From assembly GCA_051294375.1 (NCBI GenBank), contig CM119270.1, positions 12,337,676-12,401,675 of the forward strand: a stretch of 64,000 nt of DNA, written 5' to 3'. A model generated the notes under the pieces. It was not told the origin of the DNA, searched no databases, and saw nothing but the letters and a program-made list of their open reading frames with translations. Origin of the DNA: Paraspadella gotoi. Lineage: Eukaryota; Animalia; Chaetognatha. Positions within the stretch are counted from its first letter, which is position 1; each line of letters starts with the position of its first letter. Of this stretch, positions 19,158-57,400 are shown one piece after another. The position numbers and the translations under genes were made by a program.

Positions 19158-19247
<90 letters not shown>

Positions 19248-31689: not shown

Positions 31690-31880
31690 GTCCGTAACTT
31701 CTAGAACCCCCTCTTGCAGCCATGGAACAGGTCCCTGGGCTTGAAACCAGGCTTGAGGGTTTACCATTCCCCCAAGGCGGCTTATGGCCCTCACGCTACC
31801 CGCAGGGTAGGTACTGGGTTCAATCCTAACCCGGTACCTAGTGGTCATGAGCTTTTGGCTTTACTCATTAAACGTTATAA
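31690..31880 (-). mobile_element. SINE-like element: degenerate tRNA(Met-like) head followed by a twister-like motif
   Basis: Minus strand ...AATGAGTAAAGCC..CTCATGA (CAT anticodon-loop-like)..AGGTACCGGGTT (variable loop/T-arm-like), immediately followed by the structured motif at 31727-31803. Confidence 0.5.
31727..31803 (-). ncRNA. Putative type-P5 twister ribozyme variant
   Basis: GCGGGU(P5) A GC(P2') GUGA GGGCCA UAA GC C GCC UUGGGGG..CCCUCAA(P3) G CCUGG UUUCAAGC CCAGG(P4/L4) G ACCUGU(P5'). T1 = GA/UC. The conserved A after the catalytic G is U here. Confidence 0.6.
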
Positions 31881-31974
31881 AAGTGTGTATTTTTATTTAT
31901 ATTAAAATTTAGATATAGCTTCTCATCAAAAAGGTCTTTTAAAATCACATGTTTCATATTGATTCAAATATTTT

Positions 31975-32038
31975 TTGAGGAAGACAGAAGTTTTGAAAAT
32001 ATAATACTAAATATTTTCAAAACTTCTGTCTTCCTCAA
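31975..32038. repeat. Perfect 28-bp inverted repeat with 8-nt loop
   Basis: TTGAGGAAGACAGAAGTTTTGAAAATAT / ATATTTTCAAAACTTCTGTCTTCCTCAA. Confidence 0.95.
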
Positions 32039-32109
32039 TGGCGCAAAAAAAAATAATTTCTAAAAAATGTTAAAAGAAACAAATGAACAATGGAAAAAAA
32101 ATTTATATT

Positions 32110-32582
32110 ACTCTGGTGTCTTGAAGATATAAGATTTTTAAAAATATAGATTTAAAATAACAGATGGCTCTATCCCAAATAGCATCAAGGCAACCGCAAA
32201 TTATCTTAAAACTTATCTTTTGTTTGAAAAAAAAACATATCAATCCCATAACACTCTTGGATTATTTTTATCACATGATTGTGAAAGGTGTTCCATAATA
32301 GCAGAATCTTTTAAATTAATATAAAGAATATAATTTTTATGATCATTTAGTCTTATCTTCCATAACCATAAAGTTTTACCATTATAACATTTTGGTACAT
32401 TAAAAAAGACTTTTATATATGATAACAGATTTTTAAAAAATTATTCAAAAGATGCTTTAATTTCTTATAATATCAATAATTAAATAAAAGATTAGTCATT
32501 AACAAGAATTTTGTTTGCTTTAATGCTATTTAAGACAAAGCCATCTGTCATTTTAATTCTGAATCTTAAAAAATACCAGAGG
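32110..32582. mobile_element. Degenerate inverted-repeat (MITE-like) element
   Basis: Left arm CTCTGGT...AAAATAACAGATGGCT...AAATAGCAT...ATCTTTT mirrors right arm AAAAGAT...ATGCTATTT...AGCCATCTGTCATTTT...ACCAGAG. Confidence 0.6.
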
Positions 32583-33490
32583 GATTATTTTTTTTTATTC
32601 TCAATATTTTGCCTTGTATACTTTGTTCTCTGAATTTTTTTGGTAATTATTAATTTTTAAGGTTATTCTCTTTTTTTTATTAATAATAAAAACAGTATTG
32701 ACAGTTCTTCCATTATATTGTTTTTAAATAAAATATATTATGATTATTTAATATTTCTTTTTCTGTTGGTACATAAAGACCAATAAAAAACTGCATATAT
32801 GAATCATATCTTTTCAGAACTTTGAGAAACTACATTATTTTATGATTTATTATTTTACTAAAAATATTATCTTAAAAACATAACTAAAGGTAAAACTTTT
32901 TTATCTATTATAACACATCTAATTGAAAAGAAATATTTTAATATGATAATTATTTTTGTAAGTCGCGACTTTTTGAAAACTAAAAAGCGTTCTTTTTTTT
33001 TAAATTTTGTTTTTCTATTTTTTTCTAGCTTTGTTTTTGTCTCGATTGACGGATATTGCGGAGAGTGGAGGGTCAGGCCTCGAAGGCCTCGAGGAGGGAT
33101 GCCAAATCTCAATGCTGGTCGAGAGTTGCCAACTCAGAGCTGAGGAATGTGTGGCCGAGATAAGGGGGGGTGGCTGCTTTGTTATCGTGTAGTCCGGCCG
33201 TTGGGGAGAGGGGGGTTGGCTCAAGGGATCGTTAAAGAGAGCGTGGGGGTGATGAGAGAGTCGACGAAATCACGATAAGATACGAATGAACGGACGGATT
33301 GACGGACGTATGACGGTACAGATGTAAGTATCCTCACGAAAAGACCGAATTTCTTGATATTTTATCGTCATAGAATTTGTTAAAACTTGACAAAGACCCG
33401 ATTTCATGCACAGGTAATTACAGCTGTTGAATGAATGCAGAGAGATAATTGTTAATTCATATAAAGCTAACGTAACGCATAATTACAGGT

Positions 33491-33549
<59 letters not shown>

Positions 33550-33844
33550 CGCTAGCAGCTGTCGTCTGTTTCAAATCTTCTTTTTCTCCTGGTTAAAGGC
33601 TTAAAGACGCCAGAATCACAGAGGGAGTCAGATGAGAAGCAGAAATTGGAGTTTGGAGGGGGGGAGGAGGAGGAGTAGGAGGAGGAGGAGGAGGATTATT
33701 AGACAAGAAAAAAAACTGATCATTTTGATTTTCATCCCTCCCATTTTCTCTCTCTCTCTTTAGATATTACGCGGGCCAATTCATAGCAGTTTAAACTTTC
33801 GGGGAAGATAACTATAAGTTCACCGCCACTACGCCCTACAGTGG

Positions 33845-34503
33845 GCATTAAGGCATAGTAAAATTCCTAAATTTAACTTTAATTAAAATTCTAAAAGTGA
33901 GGAACGAACAACATTATACTAATGAACATTTATGTAATAAAAAAATTTATAATAAATTTTACAATTAATGCAGTAGGCTCTATTTATACTAGTACTAAAC
34001 CAATAAATGTTAAAATTTCAAAACAGTTTTTTTAAAGATTTTTTTGCAGATTTGGATTCGTCATAAAAAGTTTATAAAAAGAAATATAACTCTTTTTGAA
34101 AAATTCCTTCATTAAGTGGGTCAAAAATTAGAAAAAGCTATAATTTAAGCTGAAAATTAACTTTTTATATGAAATTGGTACAACCAATATAAAAATTATC
34201 CATTCATTTAAATATAGTTTTTTTTATTTTTAACCCACTTAATGAAAGAATTTTTAAAAACGATTTATATTCTCTTTTATCAATTTTTGACGAGGAATTC
34301 AAATCTGCAATCAAAATTAAGAAAAGCCTATTTTGAAATGTTTTGATTTTATAAGGATAGTACTATATATAAATATAGCCTACTGCAAAAATTAAAAGAC
34401 ATAAAATTAATTTTTTTTACAAATTAATGTTCACTGATGGTATGTTGTTCATAATTGACTTTTAGAATTTTTGTATGTAACTTTTCACTACGCCTTAGTG
34501 GGC
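33845..34503. mobile_element. Foldback/MITE-like element with ~300-bp imperfect inverted arms
   Basis: Arm 33845-34148 mirrors 34208-34503 (e.g. TGCAGTAGGCT/AGCCTACTGCA, TTCATTAAGTGGGT/ACCCACTTAATGAA, TGCAGATTTG/CAAATCTGCA). Part of the right arm recurs at ~36150-36330. Confidence 0.8.
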
Positions 34504-37500
34504 ATCGCCGGGGATAAAATGGCCCACTCTCTCTCTCTCTGTCTGTCTCTCTCTCTCTCTCTCTCTCAGAGAGAGTAAATCACGAATTAAAAAAATAAAT
34601 TAACAATTTTTGAAATCCTATTCATATAGATTATAGATTTTAAATTTTTTTCCTCTACACATTTTTATTTTTTTCATTTTCTATCTTCCATGATTTTTTA
34701 ATTTCCTAACTTATTTTTTTTCACTTAATTTTTTTGTCTATTTTCCATTTAATTTTGATTTGTTTCATTGGTATTTAATATTTTTTTAACTAAAACCAAA
34801 AAAAATTACAATCTGTATTATAAAAGATTTAAAAATGATTAAGAAAGAATATTTATTTGCTAACAAAAAAGCTTAAGATTGAATACAAGTGTTTTGCTCG
34901 GGCTTTTGTTTCAGCTTTGCTCCATTCTTGGTATAAAGCGACCTCTCAAAACAATTTGGGGCAAAGGCATTTTTCCCAGACAAAAGATAATGTTAAAAAC
35001 TTTGCTTGACTTTTTTTATAAAAAATATATTTAGGTAATCAAATTAAAATTAAAAGGAAATAAATCAACTAAATGTTTAAGTATTTAAAAAATATTTTGT
35101 TTTTATTTATAGTGTTTAAATTTAAAATTCATAATTAGATGAATTGATTATTAGTAAAAAAAAATTTTGTAAAAAAAAAAAATTACAGTGCCGAAACAAC
35201 TTGAACTTGTTAGTTTCTGTTTTATTTGTTAGTTGCTTTATTTGACATAAGGGCAAACGTTTTCACTTATTTTAATAGTGTTTAATTTTGTGCTCTATTT
35301 TAAATTTTTTTAAGCATTTTTTTGTAAACCAATTTTTATTTTTATTTCCTCATCACCTATTAAATTATTTAATATTAAAAACAGAAAAAGGTTCATGGAT
35401 TTCTCAAATAAAAAATTGGAGACCTGACGTTATTCTTATTACCATAGTATTAATGAAGAAAATCATTACTACAAATTTTTACAGTATAAACAAATTAATA
35501 CTGCAGCATTCACTAACATTTGTGATAATAAAAAATTATTCTGGATATGACCCCCATAGCACTTCATCTAAGCATTTTTAAGGGAAAAATACTATAATAT
35601 TCATAAAAGGGAAAGATAAGGAGTTTTAGTTTCTTTTAACAAAATTAAATTTTTAAAAATTACAAATTTTATCATCAGCAACTTTTGTAGTTAATTAGAT
35701 AAAGAATTTGTACCTTGTGGGACTATTAAAATACCTTGAAAGGAATTCTCAACTAAAAAATTAAATTTCTAGCATAAGCCAAAACTGTATAGCATACAAT
35801 ATAAATCAGTTTATACTTTAAAATTTTATAATTAAAAAAAAATTGAAGCTGCAGTAAGCTGCATTAACTTAAAATACTATACAATTACCGGGATTAAGTC
35901 CCTGACTTATAAACCATCGATCTATGTTATTTATACAATGTAATATACTCAGTTACTAGAATAAAGTAAGATTTCTTTTAATGTAATTTATCCAAATTTT
36001 GGCCTCAGGGCATTTGGCCCCATATAATACAGTATCTAAATTCATTTGGATATTGCAGTATGGGGCGAATTAAATGTAATGCTCAACCATACTTGTAACC
36101 GTAATTTTATCATTCTCGACCCATTATTGAATACACAGTGATACCAAAAATTTTTTAAAATATGTTATATTTTCTTTTATCTACTTTTGACGAGGAATTC
36201 AAATATTTAATCAAAATTAGGAAAAGTCTATTTTGAAATTTTTTTTTTATAAGGATAGTACTATATATAAATAAAGCCTACTGCAAAAATTAAAAAAACA
36301 TAAAATTAAGTTTTTTTTATAAATTAATATTAACTCGCTCTACTGAACATGTAGTAAAATGATCAATCAAATAATTGATAAAACTAATTTTTTTAGATAT
36401 ATCATTAAGTATAAATTATTAAAGGAAATAGTAATTTATATGTATGAAAACAAAAAAGAAAGAGAGGGGTAGACAGAGAGAGAGAAAAAAAGTGAGAGAG
36501 AGATAAAAATAGAAAAAAAGAAAGAGAGTTAGAAAGAGATAGAGATACAAAGAGATAGAGATACAAAGAGAGAGAAAAAGAGAGAGAGAGAGAAAGAGAG
36601 ACAGAGAGGAGAGAGATATGAAAATTAAAAAAGAGAGAATAAGGTAGAAAAAGAGAGAGAGAGAGAGAGAAAGTGAGAGAGTGATAAAAAAAAAAAGAAA
36701 TAGTGAAAAAAAGAGAGAGATAGAGATAGAAAGAGAGAAAGAGAGAAAGAGAAAGGTAGACAGAGAGAGATAAAATAAAATAAAGTGTTTAGGAATGAAT
36801 CTAAATGCAAATAAATTATTTATTTTTAAATTAGGATTGTTAATATTTTTTATGTTTTCAGTTAAAATATTTTTATAACAAGGACTGTTTATAATAAACA
36901 TTTTTTGTGATTAGGGGTGGGGATAGGGCTTTAAATGTCAATCCCCATCAAAAATAGTGGTGGGGATTCCCCAAAACTTAGGAAAAAAAGACGGTTTTTG
37001 AGAACAGAAAGAGGGCGCAGTTGAAACTGTCCCCTTATAGCCCGTTTAAACTGCGCCTTTTTGGACGGCGCAATACTTGTCTCTTTATCATCCTTGTTTT
37101 TACATTTTTTCTAGTTTTTTTGCTTCTTTTCACCGTTTTGCCCAGACCCCTTTTCTGCATTCTGTTTCTCGAACAGTTTCATTAACTTTTTTTAAATTCA
37201 ATATTGTATTCCTATTGATTAACCTTTCTAAAACTTTTCAGTCGTCCCGTTCATCCTCTATCATTCATCCCTCGTTCGGTCACTTAGAGAGTCGTTTAAA
37301 CTTTCTCTTTCAATGGGAAAATTTTAATACAAAAAAAGGATATTTTTTTTACTATCAACGTTCACCAATTTGACATTTGAATGACAAAAGGTTTTACAAC
37401 GTCGGAAATAAAGGCTCAATAGGAGAGAAACTAAATTGAAAGCGGAAGGCTGCTAAAGTGTGTCAAAGTTGGACAAAAAATAAAAGACAAAAGTAAAGGA

Positions 37501-37807
37501 TAAAAAAGTTTTAAGCAGAAGTTTGATCTTTATTTACTTTTACTTTCATTTTACTTTACATTTATTTTACTTTAACAGTTTATCTGCTTCCCAAAGTATA
37601 ATTCTTATAACTTTACTTTAAGGAATCATTAAGTTGAATTGGTGAGGAAATAGTTAAAAATTGAAACGATAATTATTATTTTATTATCTTTAGAGATTGG
37701 CATCTTATCTATGAAATTGGTACAACCAATATTTTAGAATTCCTCCTCCCACGAAATTCCTTTCCGAATGAGATTCTTTTCAAAATCGATTATTAAACCT
37801 GGTAACC

Positions 37808-37927
<120 letters not shown>

Positions 37928-39585
37928 GCGTTCCTCATGATACCTCCGAGTTACCTCCCCACAACGCCTTTGGCCCGTAACTGAGTCTCTCGTTGGGTTT
38001 TAATCACTGAGCAAACTTGGAATTCCAGAGTTTCTTTTCCTTACAATAACTCAAGGTTGAGGCCATTCTGAAAAAAAAAAATCACTAATGTAAAACTAAT
38101 GTTGTCACTGTAAAAGCCCCCGTCCTCCCCCCACTTCCCCCCCACTACCGCGCCAATAACGCCAACTTGTTTATCGAACTTCCGAAATCTGAAAGAAACT
38201 TTCAAAACGAGTCGCGCGAATGAGCAACGTCGCAACTTCACCCAAGAAATTCAAGGTTCCGTCGCCGGGCGAGGTCGCCACCCTTACTACCCTTTCGAGG
38301 GTTCGCGCCCCCCGGGTCGTCGCTACGAGGAGTTGCCCCCATGGCGACCCCATGGGCTCCCCCATCACCGCGAACGACCGTCGCCGCGACAACCGCCCTT
38401 TGTCCTTCTCGAGGTCCTCTGCTTTCATAACTTTTCGTAATTCGAGATTCTCGATCGCTCGGTGACTCTTAGAGAAGGGGGAAGGAAGGGGGGGGGTTCG
38501 CTTTCCTTTTTTTTTTATTCTCGGTCCTTTCATATTCTTTTTTTTTTTTTTAATTGAGGAGCCTTGAGTTCGTGACAAAGGGCGAGGGGGGAAGGCCAAC
38601 AGCTGAGGCCAAACCGCGTTTGGATTTTTTAACTTTTTTTTTTTTTTTCGTTTTACTAATCCGTTTTTTATTGATATAAATATAAATCATTCCTTTTATC
38701 GTGATCGGGTTAATCCGTAAATACGTTAGCAGATATGCTTTACAGATGGAAAATGTTTTAAAGTTATACATGATCCATGATCGACATTTTTTCTCTGGAT
38801 ATTTCCTAATGAATTTATCAGTTGGCCAATTTTCTCTCGGGCTTCTGGTAATACTATTTTTTAAAAGAAGAAAAATATGTAGATGAATAAAAAATGATAA
38901 GAACATGACTTGAAAAAGAACAAAATATCAAATAAAGTTTATATGGGATGTAATATTTGACTGAAGAGAGATTAAACTAAACTAAATATTTCTTTTAATT
39001 CAGTTAGTTACTAATTACAATTGAAAACGTCCAGATAAAAATATTTTTAAAAAAATACAATAATTTTTTTTCCGTTTCAGTTTAATCTCGCCTAAGCGAC
39101 GCCATCGCGTTCCTCAACGTTTTAAATGTTAAAAGCATTAGTTTTTCCAAAGCAGATGTACAAAAAGAGAGAAAAAAAAACCCGATGTTCGCCACCCGTT
39201 CCCTCGCCATCTGACATCTCGCCATCTGAACCGAGCTGCCATCTTGCCCATCCGACATCTCACGATCATTCATGACCCGAATTGAAATCGATCCGACATC
39301 TGTTTGACCGACGACGATTCCAGCGTTACGCTTTCCGTCCGTTGCCGACGCAGACGGACCGGCAGTTGCCGATATCGGCGGCTGCAACCGCCAATTGCCG
39401 GGTCCAGCCGCCGTCGCCGACGATGACAGACATCGGGATGCGCGGCCCTCGTCGTCGACAACGGGTCAAACCCTTGGAGCCGCGGGGATTATGTCGTTGT
39501 CGTCTTTGTCGTCGTCCTCTTTGTCGTCGTCGGGGCGGACCGGTGTAGACGGGTCGACGCCAGCGCAGGTGAGCCGAAGCGGCGA

Positions 39586-39957
39586 GAGACGCCGTTGCAG
39601 GTGAGGGGAGCGACGGGGAACGCCGATGACACAAGAGAGAAAAGAGAGAGACACAGAGAGCTCTAGAGAGAGCGTTTAAAATCAAGGACAGGAAATAACG
39701 GGGTGCGAACTTTGGTTTTTCTCTTTCGTTTTAAAGAATCTCAGATAGCAACGGGTGTGGGAGACGCCGTTGCAGGTGAGGGGAACGACGGGGAACGCCG
39801 ATGACACAAGAGAGAAAAGAGAGAGAGACAAAAAAAAATCAAGGACAGGAAATAACGGGGGGGGGGAACTTTGATTTTTAACCCGATTTTAATCCAAAAG
39901 AAAAAAGAAAAGAAAAGAGTTTTCTCTTTCGTTTGAAAGAATCCCAGATAGCAACGG
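39586..39957 (+). repeat. Local tandem duplication (~175-200 bp x2) upstream of the Id/emc gene
   Basis: GAGACGCCGTTGCAGGTGAGGGG...AAATCAAGGACAGGAAATAACGGGG...AAAGAATCYCAGATAGCAACGG occurs at 39586-39755 and 39761-39957. Confidence 0.9.
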
Positions 39958-40239
39958 ACTTGAAGCCGCTTTCAATCTTGCGATGCAACGTTAACTTTTT
40001 CTTTCTTTCTTTATTTCTTTTTTTTTTTTTTTTAATCTTTGTTATCCTCCCTTTTGGTTCTCACGCTATTTATAACTTCACCAAGTATTCAAAATATCCT
40101 CAGAGAGAATACAGAATAGACCGGTCGTCGTTATCGTCGTCGTCGTCGTCGATGATGATCTTATCGTTCTTTTCCTCGTCTTTTTACAGACCTCAAAAGA
40201 AAAGTTAAAATTTAAATCTCAAACTCTTCCTTCTCCTCG

Positions 40240-40440
40240 TCCGATTAGCCAGCCGCAATTGGTATCGCGATCCGATTGGTCGAAACTTACGAGGGTTTGC
40301 GAAATCGAATTCTCAACTCTCTCGGATCCTTGATTGGTCGACATTGTCGGGATGGTCCTCTCAGTCGTCTCTATTGTCGTCGTCTTGGACGAGCTTTGCC
40401 TTTAAAAGCGCTCGACAAAACTCCGCCGCAAAGATTCGAA
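40240..40440 (+). promoter_or_regulatory. Likely proximal promoter of the Id/emc gene
   Basis: Inverted CCAAT boxes (ATTGG at ~40258, 40275, 40333) and a TATA-like TTTAAAA at 40401, ~220 bp upstream of the ATG. Confidence 0.45.
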
Positions 40441-40620
40441 CTTTCAAGACTCTGGATCGCGTTTGTTAGCACAAATTTAAAAAAAAAAAGTCTGACATCC
40501 GACCATTAATTTCTCTCTGTTGGATATTTACGTCATTCACCACAACTTTTTCCCACGAAAAAAAAAAACTTGCTTTACTCCAACCTCGATTCGAACAAAA
40601 AGAAATCCCTACCACTCGCC

Positions 40621-42146
40621 ATGAAAGCCAACACTATGGTCGCTACCTCCGCCCCTGCCGTCAGCTTCTTGCACAAAATCTCCAAGGCGTCGCATGGGCG
40701 CGTCATCAAGCGGGAGGTCGTCTCCGAGGCGGAAGAGATGCGGGAACTCTTCTCGATGCTGAAGAATCTCGTTCCCGGCCTGGCGCCCACCGCTCAAATC
40801 TCCAAGACGGAGCTTCTCCAGCACGTCATCGACTACATCAGCGAGTTGTCGGCGACGCTGGAGGAGGCCGAACAGCCCGACGAAGATTTCGAAAATAAGG
40901 TAATTTGATCGACAGATTTTTACTAAGTTTTTTTTTTCTTTTTTCCTCACAAGTCGTTTCTATTTTATTAAGAATCAAAAAAAAAAACTTGTTGGTCACC
41001 GGATGTATTTAATTTATCCCATCGTCTCCTCGGTTTCCTGTAAAGTTCATCCGACAACTTTTTTTTTTCACCCTAATTGACGGACCACCCGATTTTCCTA
41101 CTGTTTTTCGATCTCGAAGTCCAACCCTCTCAAGTCCCCGCCCTTTTGCTTGTCCTCCCCCTCTTTGTCCTTCCCTCCCCTCTCCATCTGGATAAATATT
41201 CACTTCCTAATCTGCTTCTCTTTTCTTTTCTATTTTCTTTTCAAATTCGAAAAGATAATATCGTATCGTGGTAACCGAGACGCATTTAACGATTTAACTT
41301 TGACGAAATTCGTTGTTTTTGGTGAGAGTCGTAACCCTCCTTTGCAACGTTACTCCTTCCGCTCATTTTTTGAAAAAAAGTTTGGATTAAGTCCAGGTGT
41401 TGTTCTTTTAAAAACGCGTAGCCTTGCAGCTGCGGTTCGATGAAAAACTAAAAAAAAAAAGTGATTTCAGGGTTTTATTGGATAGGAAAAAGTTGTGAAG
41501 GGGAAAAAAAAACAACTAAATGCAGCATAAATTATGAGTCAGGGGGAGAAAAATGTTTTCATTGATTGAGAAAACAAAAGAGCTTTCCATTTTTAATTTT
41601 TATTCGTCTTAATCATTTGTCACGAAACCTTGTTTTTTTTTCCTTCTTCAAAAATAATAATACATTCTCTAGTAAAATTTTTTCTTCTTAAAAAGAAAAT
41701 ATGCAAATGCTACTGTGAAGAAAGGAGGGGAAGAAAGGGAAACACCTGCAACGGGAGTCTCCAAGAAACACAAATAAAACAGATTAAAACGGATTTGGTC
41801 GCATGAAGCTAATTTAAAAGGATTTTTTTCGTTGCGCAAAGCTAATTTTTCCGTCTTAACCGAATTAAAGACAAACAAGCGACGTCACATCGCGGGACAA
41901 GTGTAAAACAGCACGTGTTTTTCCGAGCGCCAAAATTAAATCATTAAAGATGTGTTTTTAAAAATTAAGAAAAAAGTAGAGAAATAAAAATAGAAACGAC
42001 TTTACGGATTATTATTTCTTATTTTTATTAAAAATTTGTCACTCGGTCATTAAATGTTTTTGCTCATTTGTTTTTTTTCTCAGGAACCGGAACCGGAACC
42101 GACGCCGATTGCCGCCTCCGACGCCGAATCCGACGTCTCCAACTGA
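40621..42146 (+). CDS. emc: Inhibitor of DNA binding / extramacrochaetae-like HLH protein (113 aa)
   Basis: Exon 1 40621-40899 (MKA... start; HLH EEMRELFSMLKNLVPGLAPTAQISKTELLQHVIDYISEL with no basic region), AAG|gtaatt donor; exon 2 42084-42146 after ttctcag (EPEPEPTPIAASDAESDVSN*). Confidence 0.9.
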
Positions 42147-43231
42147 AAGATCTACCGGCGACCGGAAAATCAAACCGGATTCGCCCGGCCGCTTCCCGGC
42201 GGCGGTCGGGCAATGGAGGGAATGAGGGCGGGGGCGTTGGTCAAACTCCCTCGTCACCCAACCGTCGGTCATCACACCTCCGAGCGGATGACCCGAACCT
42301 GACCCGAAGGAGTGACCCTGGACTCGAGCCGGCCGTCCGAGTTCAATCGCGACGCGTCATCGATAGTCGGCGAAAGAAAAGAAGATTCGCCGTCCAAGAA
42401 GATCTTCACACTAAAAAGAAGAATCTCCGAGGAGATCACGACGACGACGACGACGACGACGATGAAGACGATGACGAACTGTAAGCCGGATCGAAGAAGA
42501 ACGGGGAGATCGAAAGGGATTCACCGACGTTCCCCTCCCCTCCCCCATCTCCTCGAAAACGACAGCTGGCGCCCGCCCGTCCGTCCGTCCGTCCGTCCAT
42601 CTCTCTCCTCGGGCCATCTGGCCGGACGACGACGGCGATGAACCTGCCCTTCTCGTCAAACGCGCGACGCAGGCGGAAACACGAATTTCAATTTCCGACC
42701 CACATCTGACTCTCTCTCTGTTAGTTTGGAGAAGAGATAGAGACGGAGACTAAAGAGTGCGTGGGGGGAGAGAGGGAGCGAGAGAGAAAAGAAACACGCG
42801 TTGTCCTCCCAACTACGTGGAGCGCAAAACATGAGGGCGAGAGAGATGGGGGCTGGAAGAGGAGGAGGATGAGGAAGAGGAAGAAGAGGAGGCTCACAAC
42901 GACAGATGCCATACCCCTCATCCCGAGGGGAGAAGATTGACGCAGCCGCTCGACATCTGCTTCGATTGCCGCATCTGCTCCGATTTGGCGCATCTGCACC
43001 GGCAATGGACGACATCTGCGTCGACTGTTAACTTTTGACGTCGGCGATGAGTCAACAGCAAGAACGAAAGGGCTCAGAAAGAAAAAACAACGAAGAAGAA
43101 ACAAAAGACAAAAGCAGTCGTTAATGAATGCTACTTGCTACTAATGCTAGTTAATATTTAGTTAAATTACCTTTAAAGAGGAAAACAGTTTATTTGTTTT
43201 GTTTCAACGAATTTTTTTGGATTTTTTTTCG

Positions 43232-43267
43232 GACATGTTTCGACTCTACAGTTAGAGTCTTCATCAG
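43232..43267 (-). ncRNA. Minimal type-I hammerhead ribozyme core (Penelope-like-element type); helix I not paired
   Basis: Minus strand CUGAUGA A GACUCUA-ACUG-UAGAGUC GAAA CAUG UC: full core, 7-bp helix II, 1-bp helix III capped by palindromic CAUG; AATAAA ~40 nt downstream. Confidence 0.7.
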
Positions 43268-45297: not shown

Positions 45298-45381
<84 letters not shown>

Positions 45382-45568: not shown

Positions 45569-45600
<32 letters not shown>

Positions 45601-48600
45601 CAAAAATTAGAGGATCAAAATTGGAAAACCGCTACGGGAAGATAATTCGAATGCACTTTCCGATTATGGGAATGAAAGACTCTGTATCTTTGCTGGACCC
45701 TCGTGATTTCGCCATCGCTTTTAGAAACGAAGGTACATATAGCAAATTTATGGCCATAGTTATAGTAATAACACGCTTTATTTAATAATAAAAATGTTTT
45801 TTTCGAATAATAACCTACATATTTAGGCAAATATCCTCGCCGCCCCAATTCTAACATTCTCAGGTAGATTAATTAAAAAATATATTAACCTTATCTTTTA
45901 TTTAAAACTCGCATTAAAAATATCAAAGTAAGCGTGGCATACATTCGATAGCCATTTCAATTCACTTAACCCTACGTCAGCGTTTACCGCGAGGAACGGA
46001 AAAAAGGCCTCGGCCTCTTTATGACCAACGGCGAAGAATGGTGGCGCTTTCGTCAGCCGCTTAACAAGACGATGACGCGCGCCAACGCAGCTTATCCTTA
46101 TTTGGATATTCAGTCTTTAGTCGGGGACGAGCTCATCCAGAAAATCGGGATGGAAGTGGAAGGGAAGGACGGAAGGTATCCCGAGATCATGAAGGTGAGG
46201 TCTGAGGACAGATTATAAATATGGTTTAAATATGATTAAAAAATTATGATAAAAAAAAAAATTTAAATGTGCAAATTTTATGAAAATAATTTCATTTTTC
46301 ACCATCTTTTTCGTTAAGTTTTGAGATGAAAGCAAAAAAAAATTTTTGGTACAGAAAACGTTGCGTGTTTGTTAAAAACTTCTTAAAATGATAATTGAAT
46401 TATAGTTACTAACGAGTTTCGTTACGCGAGTCGCCGATCAGATTTCGTTTCTTGAGTTTGATTCCTCTGCGATGAGCTTGTGTAATATTTTTTCTCGGTC
46501 TGAAGAGACAGTAATAATTGTTATGAGTTAGCAACATAACCGTCCCTGAGCTTCGGATAACACCGTATTACAGGCGGGTTAAGCGCCCCGTCCCTCTTAA
46601 CTGCTAGGCGACCACCGAGTTAGAACCCCGGACCTTTGGGTTGGGAGACGAATGACTTACCTCCTGCACCAATAGGCGCTGATGAACTGTTGGTGGATTT
46701 TAGTCAACCATACGTCATTTTTTCGACAGGTCATGTTCCGTTGGGCCTTGGAATCCGTTTGCGCCGTCGTCTTCGATCGTCGCTTAGGATGCATGGACCC
46801 AAATTTGCCTAGCGACGCATGGCAACAAAAGTTTATCGATTCCGTTCACGGCGCCTTCGCTACCATGTTTAAACTCATGTTTAATCCAACGCATAGAATC
46901 GCTTACAATCTCGGATACAAAACGAAGAAATGGAGACAAATGGAGGAATATATGGAGTAAATTACATCGACTGGAAAACAATTGCTAAAACTTTATGCAC
47001 GACAGTTTCATTAAAATACTTATCATAATTTACTTTTTTTTTTAAAGTTATATTGACCAAACTACGTTGGACTTAATGCACGAAACGAAAAAGATACTCG
47101 AAGCGGATACAGACGTTGACCTCAACAAACGCTTCCTCCCACAGTTGTTCGCTGCTGACGACCTCAAATTACCGGTTCTCTATTAACTTTATTAACATCG
47201 CTTGACCATTGACCAATCTGACCAAACGTTCCAAATGAACGCGAGAAATATTTTATTTTTAGGACAAAGTCTCTGTTATTTTTGACATGATGCTCGCGGC
47301 CATCGACACAACTACTTACTCCATGTTCAGAACGTTGTTCTTTCTTGCCAAAAATCCAAATGAACAGGTGAATTTACGTCAGATGTAAATTCTGTCTACG
47401 TATAAAATAAACAATTTCAGTTGCTTGATAGTTGAGCTAATTCAGGAAACGCTTACACGGAACTGAATTCGGTGGTCGGATCGCCTGGTTCGCTCATCAC
47501 TCTACGATACTCTCGAAGCTTCATTATCTAAAGGTAAGTCATTGCCAAAAAGTCCGTGATTATTAATTTGACATTGTTTTTCAAAAACACCCCATTTCTT
47601 TTAAATTAAGTTCATTTTAAGTATAAAAGATAATGATTAAGGTTAGGGTTGGGATTGCTCATTTTTCGCTTCGTCGAAAGCGGGCGAGTTTTTAAGAATT
47701 ATGAATATGTTAAGATTTAGTAACAGAACCGTTCAAATAAGCAGTCCCTGAGCTTCGGGTCAGGGTGTAATACCGTGTTACACTGAACTTACAGGCGGGT
47801 TAAGCACCCCGTCCCTTTTAACTTCTACGGCGACTCCAGACGACCACCGGGCTAGAACCCCGGAACTTTGAATTGGGAGGCGAATGACTTGCTCCTGCAC
47901 CAATGACCTCTGATGATCGGTTGGGGGATTTTAGTCCACCATAGGAATATGGTTTTTGGTTAGAGGTTAGGGTTAAATATTAAAGTTAGAATTAAATTCA
48001 AGAATCAGGAATGGGGTGCTTTCGAATATAAATATATACATAAATTTTCATAGAAAATATTTTTTGGTATATCGTACAGGCGTGCATCCGTGAAAGCCAA
48101 AGAATGAAACCCATCGTGCCCCAAAACAGCAGAGCTCTTCCCATCGACGTCGTCATCAAAGGATATCTCATTCCCAAAGGAACACAAATATTCGTCAATC
48201 ACGAATACGCGTCCATGTCGCTGGAAAACTTTGACGATCCTCATAGGTATGACCAATGGTCATTGACCATGTGAACATTTTTTAGCATTCTTTGAGCAAA
48301 ACGAAAAGTTTAACTATGATTGTATTCATACCGTAAATTTCTTATTCTTAAAATATAAGTAGAAGCGAGTCTGAGTTATCAGGATGTAATAATATTAACT
48401 GATGAACGTGTAGATATTATTTGTACCAAGATTATTATTGCTTTGAAACGTAAGCATGCTTCATGTCAAAGTATATTTTTAGTTTATAAAATAGAATTAT
48501 TGGTTGTACCAATTTCATAGAATCTAATACACGGACTTCAATCTGGAAAGATTCAAAAGCACTTGCAATCTGATCAAAACGAAGAGTGATGGGGGTTTAA

Positions 48601-49473
48601 ATTTGTTTTGTACTGATAAAAACTACTTGATGTATTTTCCCACCAATTCATAAAATTCTGGCCAAGATAGTTTCTATGTTATAAAGATTTTCCCGAGATA
48701 GTAAATTTCTTAAAAAGCAGAATTTTTATTTTGAAAGAGGACCTTATTATTAATCCTTCCTAATATTTTTTAATACTTTACTTTTTTTATTTTATTGATA
48801 AGACACTGCTGTCAATGAATTACAAGTCAGAATAAAAAGATTAAAACCTATTGAAAATAAAATTTCACTTTTGAAAAAAAAATTTAAAAAACGACTTTAT
48901 TGATATTGATATTGTAATTAAGTTAAGACTTGGATAAAGATAAAAATGAAGAAAAGTGACCCGGCGCTGTTAAGAAATTTGATCATTTTCATCATAATCG
49001 TCAACTACTTTTCTAACTAATAAATAATATAAAAATCACTCCAGATTGAAAACCCTGTATTTTAGTATAATTAATTTTGCAATTTTCATAATGATTAAGT
49101 GTTATGTACCTTTAATTATGCATTTATACGATATTTTTAAATAAAGGTTTATGCCTGAGCGTTGGCTTCGCGATAAAGGAAAACGAGAAATGAATGTTCT
49201 TCCCTTTATTGTTCTTCCTTTCGGCTTTGGACCTCGAATGTGCATCGGAAGAAGGTTTGCCGAGCAGGAACTCTACATCGGATTAATCAAGGTGATTGCA
49301 ATGATGTTACTTTTAATTACTTTTGTTATTTTAAAAGCTAGACTAAGAAAAATTCTTTTCTCAAGATTCTACAAAGTTTTCGAGTGGAATACGAAGGCGA
49401 CAAGCTCCCCTTAAAAGCACCGGGAATCGACAAGCATCCCATCCTCTTGGATTTCATCTTTCATAAAAGATAA
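44772..49473 (+). CDS. Mitochondrial-clan cytochrome P450 (CYP12/CYP49/CYP301-like); exon 8 frameshifted in this sequence
   Basis: Exons 44772-45052, 45611-45732, 45827-45863, 45981-46194, 46730-46956, 47048-47174, 47263-47367, 47446-47533, 48080-48246, 49147-49291, 49366-49473. Presequence-like N-terminus, IPGP, WWRFR, WALES, AAIDTT (I helix), ESQR (ExxR), [14 protein letters not shown] haem motif; AATAAA at 49497. Confidence 0.92.
46537..46712 (-). mobile_element. tRNA(Gly-like)-headed SINE with a damaged twister motif (copy a)
   Basis: A box TGGTGCAGGAGG, anticodon-loop-like CTCCCAA, B box GGTTCTAACTC; homologous to 47740-47943 but lacks the 5' strand of P4. Confidence 0.75.
47740..47826 (-). 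ncRNA. Putative type-P5 twister ribozyme variant
   Basis: AGAAGU(P5) UAAAA GG(P2') GACG GGGUGCU UAA CC C GCC UGUAA..UUACA(P3) CCCUGA CCCGAAGC UCAGGG(P4/L4) ACUGCU(P5'). T1 = CG/CG; predicted cut between 47802 and 47801. Confidence 0.72.
47740..47943 (-). mobile_element. tRNA(Gly-like)-headed SINE carrying a twister motif (copy b)
   Basis: A box TGGTGCAGGAG, CTCCCAA, B box GGTTCTAGCCC; shares a ~35-nt leader before the tRNA head with copy a. Confidence 0.75.
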
Positions 49474-51497
49474 TTTAATGCGTTGAAAGTGAGCGCAATA
49501 AAAACGCAAATTTTTCTGGGAGTTTTAACGATTTTCGCTCATTGCACTTTCTGGACCAACCAAAATCTGAGTTAGTTCGTTCATATTGACTAGAGACTTA
49601 GATTTCGAGAAACACTCGGACACTAAGATCACAGTAATTTATTTATGTACAAGCACTAATCCATCAGAGTAATTAAAACATTTTTCTTCAATCTGGTAGG
49701 CAGAAAACTGATTAGTTTCTACCGTTTCAAATCAGTATGGCACAGCACTGATAATTGTTTTTACCATTATAAATCAATATGGCTAATCACTGATAAGTTT
49801 CTGCCATTAGTGAATGGTTACTTGATATTAAAATTTTTTATCTCAAAAGTATAATTATTTTAGGGCGGGTTGATCCAAACTTACATAAAATTTGATTGAA
49901 TTTTATGAGAAATTGAAAGTTTTGAAATAGCGAGTTATAAAAAGTATCGACATTTATGTGTGATATTTTATTAATTCACGCTTTTCCACAATTTTTATGG
50001 AATTTATTAAAGAATGTCAAGGTCATATGAATAAATTTTGTCAACTATAACTTGACAAGTATAACCTATGCTGATCACAATGACATCAGGCAGACAGTGT
50101 TTTACAACAGAATATAATTGTTAAGCTCAAAAGAATAACAATCTTAGGCTTTAGCTACAGCAATACAATAGTTTAGCAGTAAAAAAAAAAACTCGAACAG
50201 GTACAATTTTTGTTTGAAAACTGTAAAACTTAAACTAAAAATATTTGAAAAGAAAATTATGATATGATTTTCTATACGAAAAGCCACAAGCGCCTTATTA
50301 GCACCGCCCAAGAACCATATCAAAATAAATCATGATTATTAAACAGCAGTGAAAGCCAATGAAGAACTGGAATCCAAGTAAAAAGAATGTTTTAAAATAT
50401 TAATAAAGTGTCCTCTGTATTGAAATAGATATTTTAACATTCTAAGCTAGTTTATAAAAAGAAAATCTGAATTACTTTTCAAGCAGATCCAATAAAGTAT
50501 TTGCCATCGTTATAACCTAATCAAAGATTAAATTAAAGTAAGTCTGAGTAGTCCGACGAGCATTTTTTAAACGATCTATCAAGCAAAAATAAAAATCACC
50601 GGTAAAGGCATTACGGACGTTCTGAAACAATATTTAAGCCATTAACAATATTTAATATATTTTATGTTTTCAGGTTGACTAGACTTTTAGTTACTCCAAA
50701 AAATATTCATTAGAAAGCTTATGACGTGAATATCTACCTTAAACTCATAATACACTTTAGTTCAAAAATATTTTCACTACAATAATTTAATAAATCTAGA
50801 ATTTTCCGATGGTCCCCACATAAACAAATTGCTGCTGCCTATTCAAGATGGAAACTGTATCAAACCACTTCCTAAGTATTTCTGGGCATTTAAGTAAAGG
50901 TGACGTCGGGGAAGCGTAAGACGGTTTTAAATAATTGAAACCAAGTATCATGACGGATTTAGTTTGTAATATTAACCCCCAATAAAACCCTAAATAATAA
51001 CGAATTAAAACGAAACCCCATTAACAATTTTTAAAGCAAAACTACAATCTAAGAAAGCAAAAATTATGAACACCACAACTTTTTTTGATAACTTTTAGAA
51101 AAATCGACGTCGTGATACGACCATTGGGAAAATAGATGAGCAAATATTACATGTACCTATTGTCGCCAATTTTTAAGCGAGAAAAAAAAACAAACGATTC
51201 CCATAGACTTCACGAGAGTATTTTTAGGCGAAATTTATACGCATAATTTTAAGGATTGCCATTTTATTTTGGAAAAATCCGATCGACCGCCGGCAGACTG
51301 TGCCAGCGTCATCTACTGGCATCGAAATATGACTACAAGGAATTGGAAATCACCTCTAGTGATGTAATTGCACTTAGATTCATTTAAAAAAAAATAACAC
51401 TAAGAAAAAAAACTGGAAATGAAAAACTGGAAATGAAAAACTGGAAATGAAAAAAAAGGAAATAAAATAAACTGGAACTATAACTATCAAATTCTAT

Positions 51498-54400
51498 TTA
51501 TTCTTTGATTTTTGGATTTCCCACTTGGATCTCTACTTCCACGTCTTCGTCCGCATCTTCCTTGTTTTCTTCCTGCTTTGCCCGATGTTCTTTTGTCGAG
51601 TTTGACGTTGAAGAGGCTGGAATGCAGGGGGCGACGCCGACTTCGATCTCTTCCTCTCGTTCTTCCTCGGATTGCTCTTTTTTCGCTTCGTCGAAAGCGG
51701 GCGAGTTTGTCTGATTATTCGAATCGTCGGATTGATGCGTCGTTTCCATGGATTGATTGACTGACTCGATGGACGACTCATTGGTCGGATTGACGGATCG
51801 ATTGCTTTGGCTTTCCAACGAAGGGGACGTTGACGAACTCACGCCGGCCGAAGATGGCGAAAGCTGATGAAAAAAGATCGCGTTAAAAAAATTGTCACGC
51901 AAAGTTCTTTCCCTCTAGTTACGTTGCGAAATACCTTTGTCAGGTCGTTTTCACTTTTAAGCTTGTTGACTTCTTCCCTTAGACCTTGAACGAGTTGCCA
52001 CAAGGCGTCTCTGTCTTGTTCCACCGTCTGTAGTCTCCTTTCCAATGCTTCGTTTTCCGTCTTTAGCCGTGTGTGACCCTGGATAATTCGCAAAAGGGTA
52101 AACAAATTGCGACTGATACGCGAACATTGAAGAAATGGTTCATGCAGTATGATTATTTGATTAGTCGGATTGATTTGTAAAATTAAAATGGAATTACAAT
52201 AAAACAATCGTCTTGGCTTGCGAATAAATTTGTCCCTGTGACGACGATAGACAATGTTTTGTCTTTACCTTTTTAAGTTCATCCGCGATTTTTTCAAAAG
52301 TATTCGTCTGTGTCTGTAACTGGATCGTCTGCTTCAAGGCATCACCGGTGAATCCAGCGACCTGGGAAAAGAATAAGAATTGAGAATGAATGGACTCACG
52401 CCTTCAACGAGTGAATAGCTCGAAGCTCTCCCCACTCTCACCCCCTCTTGCAGCCTCCGCTCGGCGTGGAGTCTCTTGAACCGCTCCTCGTGCCTCTGTC
52501 GCAAGACGGCGAACTCTTGCAGAAGCCTATGACGGAGACCCGGGTCGACTTTGGACGTGAAGGCGCGTTGGAGGAGAGCCATCTCCGAGTCGTAGGTCGA
52601 TTCATATTCAGAATCGGAGACTGGTGGAAGAGGAGGGAAAGAATGGGGAAGAGAAAAGAGGAAAGAAAAGAGGACAGAAGAGAAAAGAAAAAAAAATAAA
52701 GAGGAAAGAAAATAGGAAATGAATTAAGAGAGGAAGAGAGAAAGGGAGAGAAGTAAAAAAGCAAAGAAGAAGGCGGTGTAGAAGGAGAAAAGGGAAAAAG
52801 AAAAATAACGTGAAACGATTTGTCAAAAAAAAGTTTTGGATTCTGACAGATTTTGTGACTTGGTTGATTTACTTTTCGTATTTTAAATTATTATATTTGG
52901 CTGCGACTTAAGATATTTGTTTTCTTTGTAAGAAGGCGGTCTTTTGTTACAATTTCTTTTGACAAAATTTCAAATTTAAATATTTCTTATATTTTATTCA
53001 CTTTGATAAGTGTTGAAAATGCAAACATTTTTTTGCTAAAAAGATATTCGAAATCGTATTCGAACATCTGCAACTTCTTTCTCACAACATCAAATGACAA
53101 AAATAAAAAGGAATTTTAAACTTACCTTTCCCGCAATTCGAATCGGCGTTTGGCAGTGATTCCGCTTCCATATACTGGCTCTCGTCTTTGGGTGGTTCTT
53201 GCGAGTGGACGAACAGTTTGACATCATCGAGGGACGACTGGCCTTTGGCGGTGACATTGAAAGGAGAGGGGGTGGACGGTTGGGGAGTGGCGGAAGAGGG
53301 GGCGACAGGTGGTGCCAAACCGACGGAGCGGGGTGGGGCAGTGTGGGTCAACGGCGCCAGCGCCACATTGGGCTGGAAATGACGCTCGTATCTAGGAAAG
53401 GAAGAAAAACGCCGCTTTCAATATTTTTTCAAGGAAAGAATAATTGATTATTAGATTTTCTAAGATTAAACGACTTTCCAAGATTAATTAACTTTGTAAA
53501 TTTAGTAATTCGTAAACAAGTGATACTGTAGCTGTCGGTTAACGATAATTGGTACATTGGGGTGTTAAAACAGATATTACTTTCTCCCTTTCTTTCACAC
53601 ACTCATACCTCCCCTGTTCCGAGAAGGGAATAACTCGCTCTGGATTCAAGAGGATGGGCGGACCCGCGCTAAGAAACGCTGGAAGGTCTCGCGACGCGCT
53701 GAAAACAAATACGAAACTAAAAAACTAAAAACAATCAGAATATATGACACTCGTTTAAAAATGTCAATTTACTAATAAGGCCGAAGGGAAATTAAAACAA
53801 AACAAATTCTAGTCTATTTTTACCATCATCTATGAACCTCTTGTGTTAATTAAATTTAATTATAAGAGATTATTACATAGGCGTAAATTGTATTTATACA
53901 TTCCTATACACTAATCAAACGAGTCTACTACATCCCACTTTAAAGTTTTAACAACGAGTCCCAGACAGCATATTTTATAAATTTGTCTCGCGGGGGTCAA
54001 ATCAACTTTCAACCTTTTTAAATCCCCCCTCTCTGTTATCTCTACGTATTACGTTATTTTCACCTCTTGAATTTCTCGTCAGGACCGACGTTCCAAGGCA
54101 TAAAAGCTGATAATTGACTAGCGCCGGAGTCGGCCGAGGGGCAGTCGTTACTGCAATTGCTACAGCTACTAGAGTTGCTGCAGCTTTGATCCGAGGAGCT
54201 GATCTGAATCTTTGGTTTCTTGCTACAGTCGCAGTCCGAAGTCTCCTTCTGCAAAAAATACATTTTAAAGCAAAGACCCGCATGAAAATATGTATTGTAC
54301 TATATAATACGATATTGAAAAAAAAAAAGAACTCTCTCTCTCAACGAGATTAGCGGGTATCTCCCGTCGGTCTCATTTTTTTAATCGCATTTAAAACGAA

Positions 54401-57400
54401 GGAATTTAAAAACTGGGTCAATGTATCTAAAAATATCGGACACATTTTAAGAGTCACACTTTTTTTTCCCCACTTCAACTTCACAATATCACGTGACTTT
54501 GTGTTTTTCTTTCGTTTTCACAATTTTCTCACTTAAAATTCTTGGGATCAAAGTCGACCCGATAGGTGAGACGTCGCGTCGCAGGGCGTTTTAATTCAAT
54601 CGTTACTCTGATCCTCTTCCTAATCTATATCCTCCCCAAAATAAAAGACGTGTGAAAATAAAAAAAAAATCCCATGTTTTCGCCAAATATTTAATCTTTG
54701 GATCTTGGCTAAAGTCCGTTGTTTTGTTTTTTTTTTTAATCCAGATATATCTGAGAATGATTTATGAATTTGACGAATGACTTTTTTTTATTGAAAAAAA
54801 GTGTTGCGTCACAGATGACAATAGATAATCACGTTTTGAATCGCATTATTTTTTTTTTTTTGACCAGGGCCTTCAAACCAATTTGAAATCGTGTGGACGC
54901 CACAAACAAGTCAACAATAGTGAGCTCTTTGACGAAGCGTTGGATTTCATATGTTAAATCCATTTTGAAAATGTGTCACTTCTTATTTTCGCCCCAAACG
55001 AAATGATCACTTAAGTTTATCTTTTAAAAAACCCAGAGAAATTTTAAAGATACGAAAATAAAGGTCAAATCCTCTTTCCGTTTTTTTTTTCTTAAACGTA
55101 TATAAAAAAACAGAAAAAAATAATTTGAGATCAGAATGATAAGATTAATTTTTTTTTCTTAATATATCCACGAATGACAAGCTGCCTTTTAAAGAATATT
55201 AGTAGAAAAAAAACTTGACATCATTTTCGATTTCTTGGGTACAGTACATTGCCTCTGAAATTTTTCATGTACTTTTTGGTGCCATTAGATATTATATAAT
55301 TATTATTATCGTTATCTAATTAGTTCTTCTAATTAATTTAGGTCTGCTCTCGTATGTAAGTAGCCATCCCAATTAAACATTTTTTTTCCTGGTGGGATTC
55401 CATTAATTTTAAGTTCTATTGTTTCTCATCTAGCGTAATATCCCCTGAGAGAATGAAAACTAAAGAAAAGGAATCAGATAAACAGTGTAGAAAAATTACT
55501 ATTATTTCACGAAAATTGTATAAATATTTTGAGGTCAAGCAATCGAGATTCTTTCTCTTAACCTTCGAATCATTTGGAAATTTTCCTGACCTTTCCACTT
55601 ATCCGTCTTTTACCTAACCTCGGTCAACATCTTTCTCTTTTTATATCTTTCTCTCTTTCTCTCTCAGACAGACAGAGACAGACAAAATAAAAGATAAAGA
55701 GAATTGTGGCGGTATATTCACACCGCCTAGCCTCCAGCTTCATTCTGCCAATCTCATTGGCTCAGAGGGAGAACGAACCATCCCAAGAGTTACGTTCCAT
55801 CCACAGTCCTAACCGACTTCCCTGGGTTGGCAAATACGAGACCGTTCTCGGGTAACCGCGCCTGTGGCCGGTGCCGCCACTGAGGGTCGGAAGTTCCTAA
55901 AGCCAATGGGCATCACAGGCAACTGGGCTGTTGCTATAGAAGCAGATAAACAGAGACAAATAAAGATTGAGAGTAAGAGACAGATGGGGAGAAAGAGTGA
56001 CCAATAAATTGTGCTAAAAACTCACCCCACCCGTCCTGAACACTTTCAATTCCAGGATCCCCTCACCTTTCTCTTAATCCTCGTCAAGTTAAACTTCTCC
56101 TTTAAATCGTCCAACGTCGATTGATGCTTCTCTTCATTCTCTTGATCTGGACTCAGCAAAAGGTAAGATCTCCAGTTGGCCGAGTCAAACCCCCAGTGAC
56201 ACGTCTTGTTCTCCGTGGCCCGGTGGGAGTGGACGACGAACTTGTCCGGGCTGAACACCCCCGCGCACTCCAGACACTCGATGGCCCTCGCCGTCGCCGC
56301 CACGTAGAGGTCCGGGTGAAAAATGCCCCGGCATTTGCCGAAACATTCGTGGTACACCTTGAAAAAGTTCTTGAGGTTGGGCGTCTCCCTCAGCGGAAAG
56401 GGCGTCCTGTGCAGCAGGGAGTTGCAGAGTCGCTCCGCGTCCGTCTTGGTGATGAGGCCGCAGGAGGGCGCTGAGACGGGCAACACACCGGTCACCTTGA
56501 GCACGTCCAGCTGGTCCGGAGTGCAACGGGAGCAGTATATGTGCAACTCGTCGCAGACAGAATTGATCTCGGCCAGGGAAAAGTCGCGCAGGACCGTGTT
56601 GAGGATCTGCGGGAGACAGAGGCGTCGCTCGCCGCCGACGTTGAAGCAGGCGATGACCTCGTGCTCGAGAAGAGTCTCTTCCTTGTCGCAGTTGTTGTCC
56701 GGGGGGAGAAAGATGGGGGCGGCTGGGAGGGAAGGGGGATGAGGGGTGGTAGGAGTGGAACAGGGTGGGACGGTAGGGGTCGATGGGTGAGGGGGTTTGA
56801 CGACCATGGGAGGGGCGTGCCAAATCCCCGGAGGGGGCGATCGTTCGTCCTGGACCTTCTCTTGGATGGCGACTGGGGCTGGGGCGTGGTCGAGGGTCGA
56901 CGGGTGATGGAGAGAGACTTTGGGCGGGACGACGGGGACGCTCGGCGGAGGATCGAGTTTGACGACTTGAGCCGCGTGCGCTTGGGAGAGGGCGATCGCC
57001 TGGTGATGGAGGAAGGGGAAGGATTCAGTGATGATGATTGATTGATTGATTGGTTGAAAATTAAGAGATTACTTTTCCGTGATAGAGATATTATGTTTTG
57101 AGTTACACGTATCTTGTTTATAAACTGATTGACAACGAAAGTAAACCTAGATACGTACGACTTAGTTAACTTTTAATTTTAAAAAATAAATTAATAATAG
57201 CGGTTACAAACTCATCATAATTTAAAAAAAGATCAAATCTTCAAAAGTTTAAAACCACCCTAAACGACGCCCATAAATTGGCATTTCCTGCGTATAAATC
57301 TTCAAATATAAAAAAAACCAATAGAGAAAAGATCATAATTATTGCTGATTCTTTTGTTTTAAACAAAAATAAACCGCAGCGACAGAAAAAAAAAGAAAGA

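Follow-up and report, generated by a model that had tools for sequence, protein, structure and literature searches.

Short repeats with a variant type-P5 twister fold in a chaetognath genome: candidate Naiad passengers with a palindromic, possibly dimer-forming P1

A 64,000-nt stretch of the genome of the chaetognath Paraspadella gotoi (assembly GCA_051294375.1, contig CM119270.1, positions 12,337,676 to 12,401,675; here the window, whose own coordinates are used throughout) carries short non-coding elements, families A, B and D and an element C, that share the layout of a type-P5 twister ribozyme. With a probability of roughly 0.55, judging from their sequence, they would be non-autonomous passengers of Naiads, a kind of Penelope-like element, built like short interspersed elements (SINEs) and cutting mainly when two copies pair. 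The parts of this reading are not equally firm. That the fold is of the twister class is close to certain, and activity in the family-majority sequences, with self-cleavage as predicted, is very probable; dependence on Naiads is probable to a lesser degree, and the proposed gating of cleavage by dimer formation is an even call. An earlier note on this DNA, made from its letters, described A, B and C with a damaged sibling; family D was absent from it and is a new family found with the strict descriptor given below (site at 31298, minus strand). The main features are as follows.

31656..31867, minus strand: family A copy, with its 3′ end near 31656; beyond 31867, other copies go on in the 5′ direction.
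31727..31803, minus strand: family A twister core, with P5 31803-31799/31731-31727, G-A 31792-31791, T1 31790-31789, predicted cut U^AA 31784/31783, T2 31778-31777, P3 31776-31752, P4 31751-31747/31738-31734 and P4 loop (L4) 31746-31739.
47700..47943, minus strand: family B copy, made up of a 33-nt leader, a tRNA-like head, the twister and a shortened tail.
47839..47910, minus strand: tRNA-Gly(CCC)-like head of that copy, with an RNA polymerase III (Pol III) A box from 47902 and a B box (relaxed ARAGORN, ps85, plus an A/B-box pattern).
47741..47825, minus strand: family B twister core, with G-A 47813-47812, T1 CG/CG, predicted cut U^AA 47802/47801, T2 GC/GC, P4 CCUGA/UCAGG and L4 47759-47752.
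46501..46712, minus strand: second B copy, with both ends defined, a tRNA-like head at 46607-46679 and the 5′ strand of P4 deleted.
31202..31438, minus strand: family D copy, with a sharp 3′ end at 31202 and a 5′ end at 31438 or beyond.
31250..31312, minus strand: family D twister core, with P5 of 8 bp, AAG, G-A 31298-31297, T1 UG/CA, predicted cut U^AA 31287/31286, T2 AC/GU, a P3 of one C-G pair closing AAA, P4 CCUG/CAGG and L4 31270-31263.
55758..55802, plus strand: head of element C, a match to an A-box plus B-box-like pattern.
55827..55906, plus strand: element C twister core, with G-A 55840-55841, T1 CC/GG, a 9-nt linker, predicted cut U^AA 55853/55854, T2 GC/GU and P4 AGGG/UCCU; it lies antisense to the Ski gene, some 140 nt beyond its large exon.

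The motifs of A, B and C and the damaged sibling stand at the coordinates and on the strands that had been claimed for them, with the three P4 helices, the cut sites (55853/4, 47802/1 and 31784/3, all predicted) and the order of parts (P5, P2′, G-A-xy, linker, UAA, P2, GCC, P3, P4 with an 8-nt loop, P5′) as described. The strict descriptor asks for G-A-xy, 4-12 nt, UAA, P2 of at least 2 bp, T2, P4 of at least 4 bp around NNx′y′AAGN, and P5 of at least 4 bp. Tuned after the sites had been seen, it finds four sites in the window (A, B, C and D), where 150 block dinucleotide shuffles average 0.28 and never exceed 3. When P5 is dropped the shuffles give a mean of 0.57 and reach 5, so P5 is required for separation from chance. 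That the motifs are chance matches to a loose description of the twister can draw on these shuffles without P5, on an earlier loose scan that at its lowest cut-off gave 6 sites against 2.2 per shuffle, and on the Rfam scores considered below. The result of the strict scan, and the location of three of the four sites within high-copy repeats whose majority letters improve the fold, largely refute this explanation, and it is very improbable indeed.

The varied pseudoknot pairings give further support to a P5-permuted fold in several families. There are four T1 pairings, GG/CC (A majority), CG/CG (B), UG/CA (D) and CC/GG (C), and three T2 pairings, GC/GC, GC/GU and AC/GU. The catalytic G followed by A, and U^AA, are present in all four descriptor sites and in the copies at 46.5 kb and 21.7 kb. 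P4 is a helix of 4-6 bp and covaries, as T1 and T2 do. In A, C, D and the B majority a G directly precedes P4 and can pair with the C after T2; a pair of this kind, C-G at the foot of P3, is canonical in twisters. P5 has 4-9 bp and forms when A, B and D are folded to their lowest energy; in B, D and the A majority, AAG links it to P2′. Of the roughly 4 bp of the consensus P2, the elements have 2 bp and then a mismatch with C; imperfections of P2 are tolerated in type-P1 twisters, as described in PMC11662667.

Reads bear on these assignments. The stretch is present as contigs in nine public runs from three studies, none recorded as RNA; contig depth was taken over the B copies (46350-48150) in four runs and over A and D (31130-31960) in two, X4 and X6. 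Majority letters mend folds that are broken in the window copies: in A at loop position 31744 and P5 position 31729, in D at linker position 31293, and in B at loop position 47759 and at the G before P4, 47765. At 31744 a minus-strand C makes up 98% of the depth in X4, giving the majority loop UUCCAAGC; because of this, T1 of A is GG/CC and the catalytic G-A lies at 31792-31791. The T1 covariation proposed in the earlier note stands for B (CG/CG) and C (CC/GG), while its A pairing, GA/UC, is out of register, with G-U in place of G-A, as is its P2 of GC/GC for A. The window copy of A departs from the majority by the loop mutation and by a 3-nt deletion in the linker, which in the majority reads A-CGGCCG, the three extra bases being shown by loose ends at 31789.

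A search with the Rfam twister models had been proposed in the earlier note as a check. Twister-P5 (RF02684, clan CL00120) matched D as its sole site, at 26.5 bits (E 0.22 for the whole window and 0.0027 for 801 nt), and A, B and C had no twister match in Rfam at E up to 10; the gathering score of 37.6 bits was reached by no family. The elements share with RF02684 the order of parts, the G-A before T1, U^AA, both T1 and T2, the 8-nt P4 loop and an open P5. They differ from it in a loopless 6-nt palindromic P1, a P2 of 2 bp and a C mismatch where the model has 4 bp, a fixed AAG, and their setting in high-copy animal repeats. Given the Rfam score and the lack of a hairpin P1, they are filed as a variant of the twister class. 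MAFFT did not bring the four cores into structural register, and the full twister pattern had no match in metagenome contigs and none in viral contigs. [A shorter pattern gave 20 metagenome loci; none had P4 and its loop downstream, by eye, and they were treated as chance.]

The part of the fold that is out of the ordinary is P1. A type-P5 twister has an intramolecular hairpin here; in A (majority), B and D there is none, and the 7-nt linker consists of one base and a loopless 6-nt palindrome. The hexamers differ by family, CGGCCG in A, GGCGCU in B and AGGCCU in D, with predicted self-duplex energies of −10.7, −8.3 and −9.1 kcal/mol respectively. The B linker in the 46.5-kb copy reads G-GGCGCU, with no alternative letter among the rows listed; in D, the letters G-AGGCCU hold 99% of the depth, and the 21.7-kb copy has AGGCCU directly. 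A lone linker can form 1 bp with a 4-nt loop, and two copies can form 6 bp. There is precedent among the hammerheads of Penelope-like elements and of amphibian retrozymes, which are described as having 1-2 bp and a palindromic loop, and as cutting better as dimers (PMC4209133, PMC7229834). It is on the loopless palindromic P1 together with this hammerhead precedent that the proposal of cutting as dimers is based.

In the cycle that we propose, Pol III would transcribe B, and perhaps A and C, from their A/B boxes. With P1 limited to 1 bp and a 4-nt loop, a lone copy would be cut slowly, so that its RNA would remain whole long enough to be copied together with its promoter. Two copies, joined in a read-through transcript of a tandem or meeting in trans, would pair through a P1 duplex of 6 bp, and the cut at U^AA would then yield unit-length RNA, which would perhaps be circularised. 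The Naiad reverse transcriptase and GIY-YIG endonuclease would recognise the common 3′ structure and insert the element at AT-rich sites. A further step would be to see tRNA-headed SINEs that are moved by Naiads and not by long interspersed elements (LINEs), with an obligate-dimer, domain-swapped twister acting as a copy-number switch (silent when single and active when tandem or paired); this is speculative and, on balance, doubtful.

Dimers may not be needed. P1 is dispensable and its imperfections are tolerated in type-P1 twisters, according to PMC11662667 (the large-scale test of natural twisters reported there was limited to type P1), and for this reason monomers may cut. The 7-nt linker would then be a short connector of 1 bp and a tetraloop, and the elements would spread via re-ligated or circular RNA with any partner. 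Consistent with such an arrangement, the copies in the window are dispersed monomers, none in tandem, and the 9-nt linker of C holds no clean palindrome. However, three families keep three different self-complementary hexamers, and the five Naiads discussed below keep longer loopless palindromes. A fast internal cut would also separate promoter from tail, yet B copies with both head and tail are abundant. Cutting by monomers is the foremost of the alternatives, at perhaps one chance in five, and dimer cutting remains the preferred account.

In X4 the depth of B peaks at 2.49 million where the flank has about 214, and the other three runs give ratios of the same order (some 2,000- to 34,000-fold); that of A reaches 1.2 million in X4 against about 214 in unique DNA, with loose ends at 31656 and 31867, and that of D 6.8 million, all such ratios being read as orders of magnitude alone because summed contig depth is not copy number. 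The high copy number suggested in the earlier note therefore holds for A, B and D (10^3- to 10^4-fold over single-copy depth). The boundary of B is sharp, with depth falling from 752,000 to 887 and unrelated AT-rich sequence outside. Its 5′ end is at 47943 in three of four runs and at 47944 in the fourth, and for the second copy there are loose ends at 46501 in all four runs and at 46712 in three. In being short, non-coding, high-copy and dispersed, A, B and D resemble tRNA-derived SINEs; both ends are defined for B alone.

Pol III-box heads are clear in B, with weaker traces in A and C. Over both strands of the 64 kb the A/B-box pattern has two matches in all (B at 47902 and C at 55758; shuffle mean 0.41), each just upstream of a twister. 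With relaxed settings, ARAGORN labels the heads of both B copies tRNA-Gly(CCC)-like, and the B majority letters, read by hand, allow an acceptor stem of 7 bp and a T arm of 5 bp. In the A majority a B-box-like GGTTCAATCC lies upstream of P5. [A also has a 13-bp inverted repeat at 31809-31840, whose 7-nt loop is flipped in the window copy relative to the read majority; the flip destroys the B-box-like motif of that copy.] The 33-nt leader of B (46680-46712 and 47911-47943, minus strand) is conserved, has a weak hairpin and lies 5′ of the tRNA-like head. Given where Pol III starts, transcripts from the element's own promoter should not include it. A tandem or circular template may be its source, or it may be the 30-40-bp extension known from Naiads (PMC8557442).

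The tRNA-like head of B would also fit ordinary tRNA-derived SINEs, mobilised by a non-LTR (long terminal repeat) LINE or at the DNA level, in which a twister was captured once and the fold is now inactive or incidental. The 3′-anchored truncations of D, described below, would fit any target-primed reverse transcription, and none of the element ends listed (46712, 46501, 31202 and 31276) is at U^AA. Against this, four unrelated sequence contexts retain the catalytic G and the UAA, along with pseudoknot pairs that compensate, and the defined ends of B have neither a poly(A) or simple-repeat tail nor terminal inverted repeats; such an origin is improbable. Three other candidates were set aside. 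TC...CTRR is the Helitron end consensus, and B has no such ends; miniature inverted-repeat transposable elements (MITEs) were rejected for B for want of terminal inverted repeats; and a hammerhead on the other strand, considered because A and B have TGAAGA close to their 3′ ends, was rejected, as no GAAA and stem III come after it.

Besides the family D copy above, the window holds these:

21678..21825, plus strand: D copy, 5′-truncated directly before P5; its AGGCCU palindrome is perfect, and 14 nt are inserted in its P4.
22833..22922, plus strand: D copy that begins at the foot of P4, with its loop mutated.
10322..10396, minus strand: D copy that begins inside P4.
22149-22201, 34162-34211, 19611-19653, 17413-17464, 48498-48523 and 37715-37732: matches to the D tail only.

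There are thus two copies with a whole core, two that begin at P4 and six tails, and a common 3′ end with 5′ truncation fits retroposition. The depth of D in X4 peaks at the 3′ end and drops toward the 5′ end, and loose ends at 31202 number 348 in X4 and 228 in X6. The commonest truncation among those listed, 31276 (44 contigs in X6), is 10 nt beyond the predicted cut. [A single X4 contig joins the D 3′ end, 31202, to a D copy that starts at 31288, 1-2 nt before the predicted cut.]

Naiads are the candidate source of the enzymes. File S5 of PMC8557442 holds 54 Naiad consensus sequences; for 18 of them, assigned by file order, the 3′-terminal 500-600 nt were viewed by eye. A twister-like layout is seen near the 3′ end in five of the 18, all bivalve (Mgal, Bpla, Mphi, Scon and Mmer): P5, AAG, three bases (P2′), GA-GG, T, palindromes, (U/C)AA, a short P2, T2, P3 and P4 with a YNCCAAGN loop. 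Mgal and Bpla have the P4 (CCTG/CAGG) and the T2 (AC/GU) of D. As described in PMC8557442, Naiads are biased towards (TA)n, are heavily truncated at the 5′ end and reach copy numbers in the tens of thousands. The present elements are like them in the twister layout (5/18), in 5′ truncation, in very high copy number and, weakly, in AT-rich targets, and differ in being of some 210-250 nt without an open reading frame (ORF), in having one short palindrome and, in B, a tRNA-like head. [A different motif stands directly after the ORF in nine of the 18 ends viewed (CGi, Sglo, Olur, Tgra, Pmar, Skow-1, Skow-2, Pfla-1 and Pfla-2), and none of these nine has the twister layout. By eye it is a helix around a loopless palindrome, some 10 nt long and different from family to family, followed by a small covarying pseudoknot, and may be a second dimer-type ribozyme.]

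Likeness to Naiads can be taken further: autonomous Naiad-like elements of greater length may have left A, C and D as 5′-truncated 3′ ends (solo pseudo-LTRs), with B alone truly short. Naiads are strongly 5′-truncated (PMC8557442), as are the D copies of the window, and D depth peaks at the 3′ end; loose ends behind 31867 in A (agreement 0.74) and 31438 in D (0.5) point to common sequence beyond the window copies. However, Pol III-like boxes lie directly upstream of the twister in A and C, the Naiad ends viewed have two palindromes where there is one here, and B ends sharply. This is an unlikely account, less so than that of ordinary SINEs and more so than that of cutting monomers.

Several observations weigh against elements that are passengers of Naiads and cut as dimers, in addition to the Rfam scores below gathering, the dispensable P1 of type-P1 twisters, the lack of tandem copies in the window, the linker of C and the absence of listed element ends at U^AA. 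At its lowest energy C folds otherwise than as a twister. The 15 joints listed of 92 include none from a B tail to a B head. D has no recognisable A or B box, and relaxed ARAGORN calls are weak alone because they are noisy (12 window matches at ps85 and 36 at ps80, the B heads being among the 12). At the ends of B the ATAT bias is weak (agreement 0.42-0.51), and the 46.5-kb copy is without a TA flank; possible 7-nt target-site duplications are present at the 47.8-kb and 31.3-kb copies, none is present at 46.5 kb, and there is no clear tail repeat. On the Naiad side, the twister layout was not seen in the viewed part of 13 of the 18 ends. The likeness is one of layout, judged by eye, with no extended sequence identity seen, and the palindromes between GA-xy and UAA are two in Naiads, longer and differing, and one in these elements. 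The Naiad supplement, where short-motif searches were uninformative, has no exact match to the L4-P4 strings of families A, B and D, and 129 window ORFs (at least 70 aa, low-complexity ones dropped) include no match to a reverse transcriptase or GIY-YIG domain.

Comparison with other ribozyme-bearing elements places these repeats near the hammerhead retrozymes. The SINE-like hammerhead repeats of Schistosoma and the retrozymes (PMC6765202, PMC7229834) are described as non-coding units of similar size, and in the schistosome repeats a Pol III promoter is ahead of the hammerhead (PMC6765202), an order that recurs here with a twister. Cutting that depends on dimers through a palindromic minimal helix, which is inferred for the elements of this study, and a proposed Penelope-like partner are common to both; animal retrozymes are argued to be non-autonomous Penelope derivatives (bioRxiv 10.64898/2026.07.22.740005). 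Theirs are tandem arrays with a type I hammerhead, whereas here there is a twister in what, in the window, are dispersed monomers. The window has no Rfam hammerhead match, and the elements in it show neither the tandem repeats nor the type I hammerhead of a non-LTR retrozyme. The Perere-3 T-variant twisters of Schistosoma (PMC8501958) share the ribozyme class and the tie to an invertebrate retroelement. The analogy that the earlier note had drawn with twisters of Schistosoma mansoni retrotransposons is not supported: in Perere-3, a coding LINE, the ribozyme is at the 5′ end, its cut is the insertion boundary and P1 is completed by the target-site duplication, while here the twister is permuted and its cut site internal. 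In titles and the starts of abstracts (subscription journals and bioRxiv supplements being outside the scope) no description was found of P5 twisters in animal repeats, SINEs or Penelope-like elements.

The elements bear on what ribozymes do in Penelope-like elements. Craig et al. (2021; PMC8557442), whose main text does not use the word ‘twister’, report no canonical hammerhead in Naiads and read the absence of a ribozyme as possible dispensability. If the proposal is right, these repeats would be a twister counterpart of the hammerhead retrozymes, would supply the ribozyme reported missing from Naiads, and would point to short non-coding Naiad partners. A second ribozyme class, in the same position and with the same palindromic device for dimers, would then suggest that dimer-gated cleavage is a part of the replication cycle. 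The Rfam P5 model misses three of the four families; if they are active, there would be tens of thousands of unannotated P5-type twisters in one animal genome. Cores of 65-90 nt make dimer gating directly testable.

The surroundings are genic. The window includes a Ski exon (56049-57068, minus strand; best identity at most 68% among the matches listed, and on a long branch that a quick tree did not place), an HLH gene, cytochrome P450 exons and RGS-type exons. The B copy at 47700-47943 lies antisense between the P450 exons (48044 and 49145). In C, the T2 strand and the start of P3 have a perfect 7-nt complement directly downstream of P5′ (55860-55921), which could form an inhibitory alternative fold. 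Directly 3′ of the B copy is a 40-nt repeat, 47652-47691, with a second copy at 51669-51708 (97.5% identity), and repeats that adjoin D and A (31494-31630 and 31886-31941) are deep in X4 and of far lower relative depth in X6. At 33885-34471, 31975-32038 and 60742-60817 are elements that are palindromic, MITE-like or hairpins, part of the first being repeated at 36146-36335 and 15980-16110. There is also a tandem duplication of 8.5 kb with 87% identity, 1-8517 and 11269-19281, the second copy of which carries the DEP, DHEX, GGL and RGS exons of an RGS6/7-type gene.

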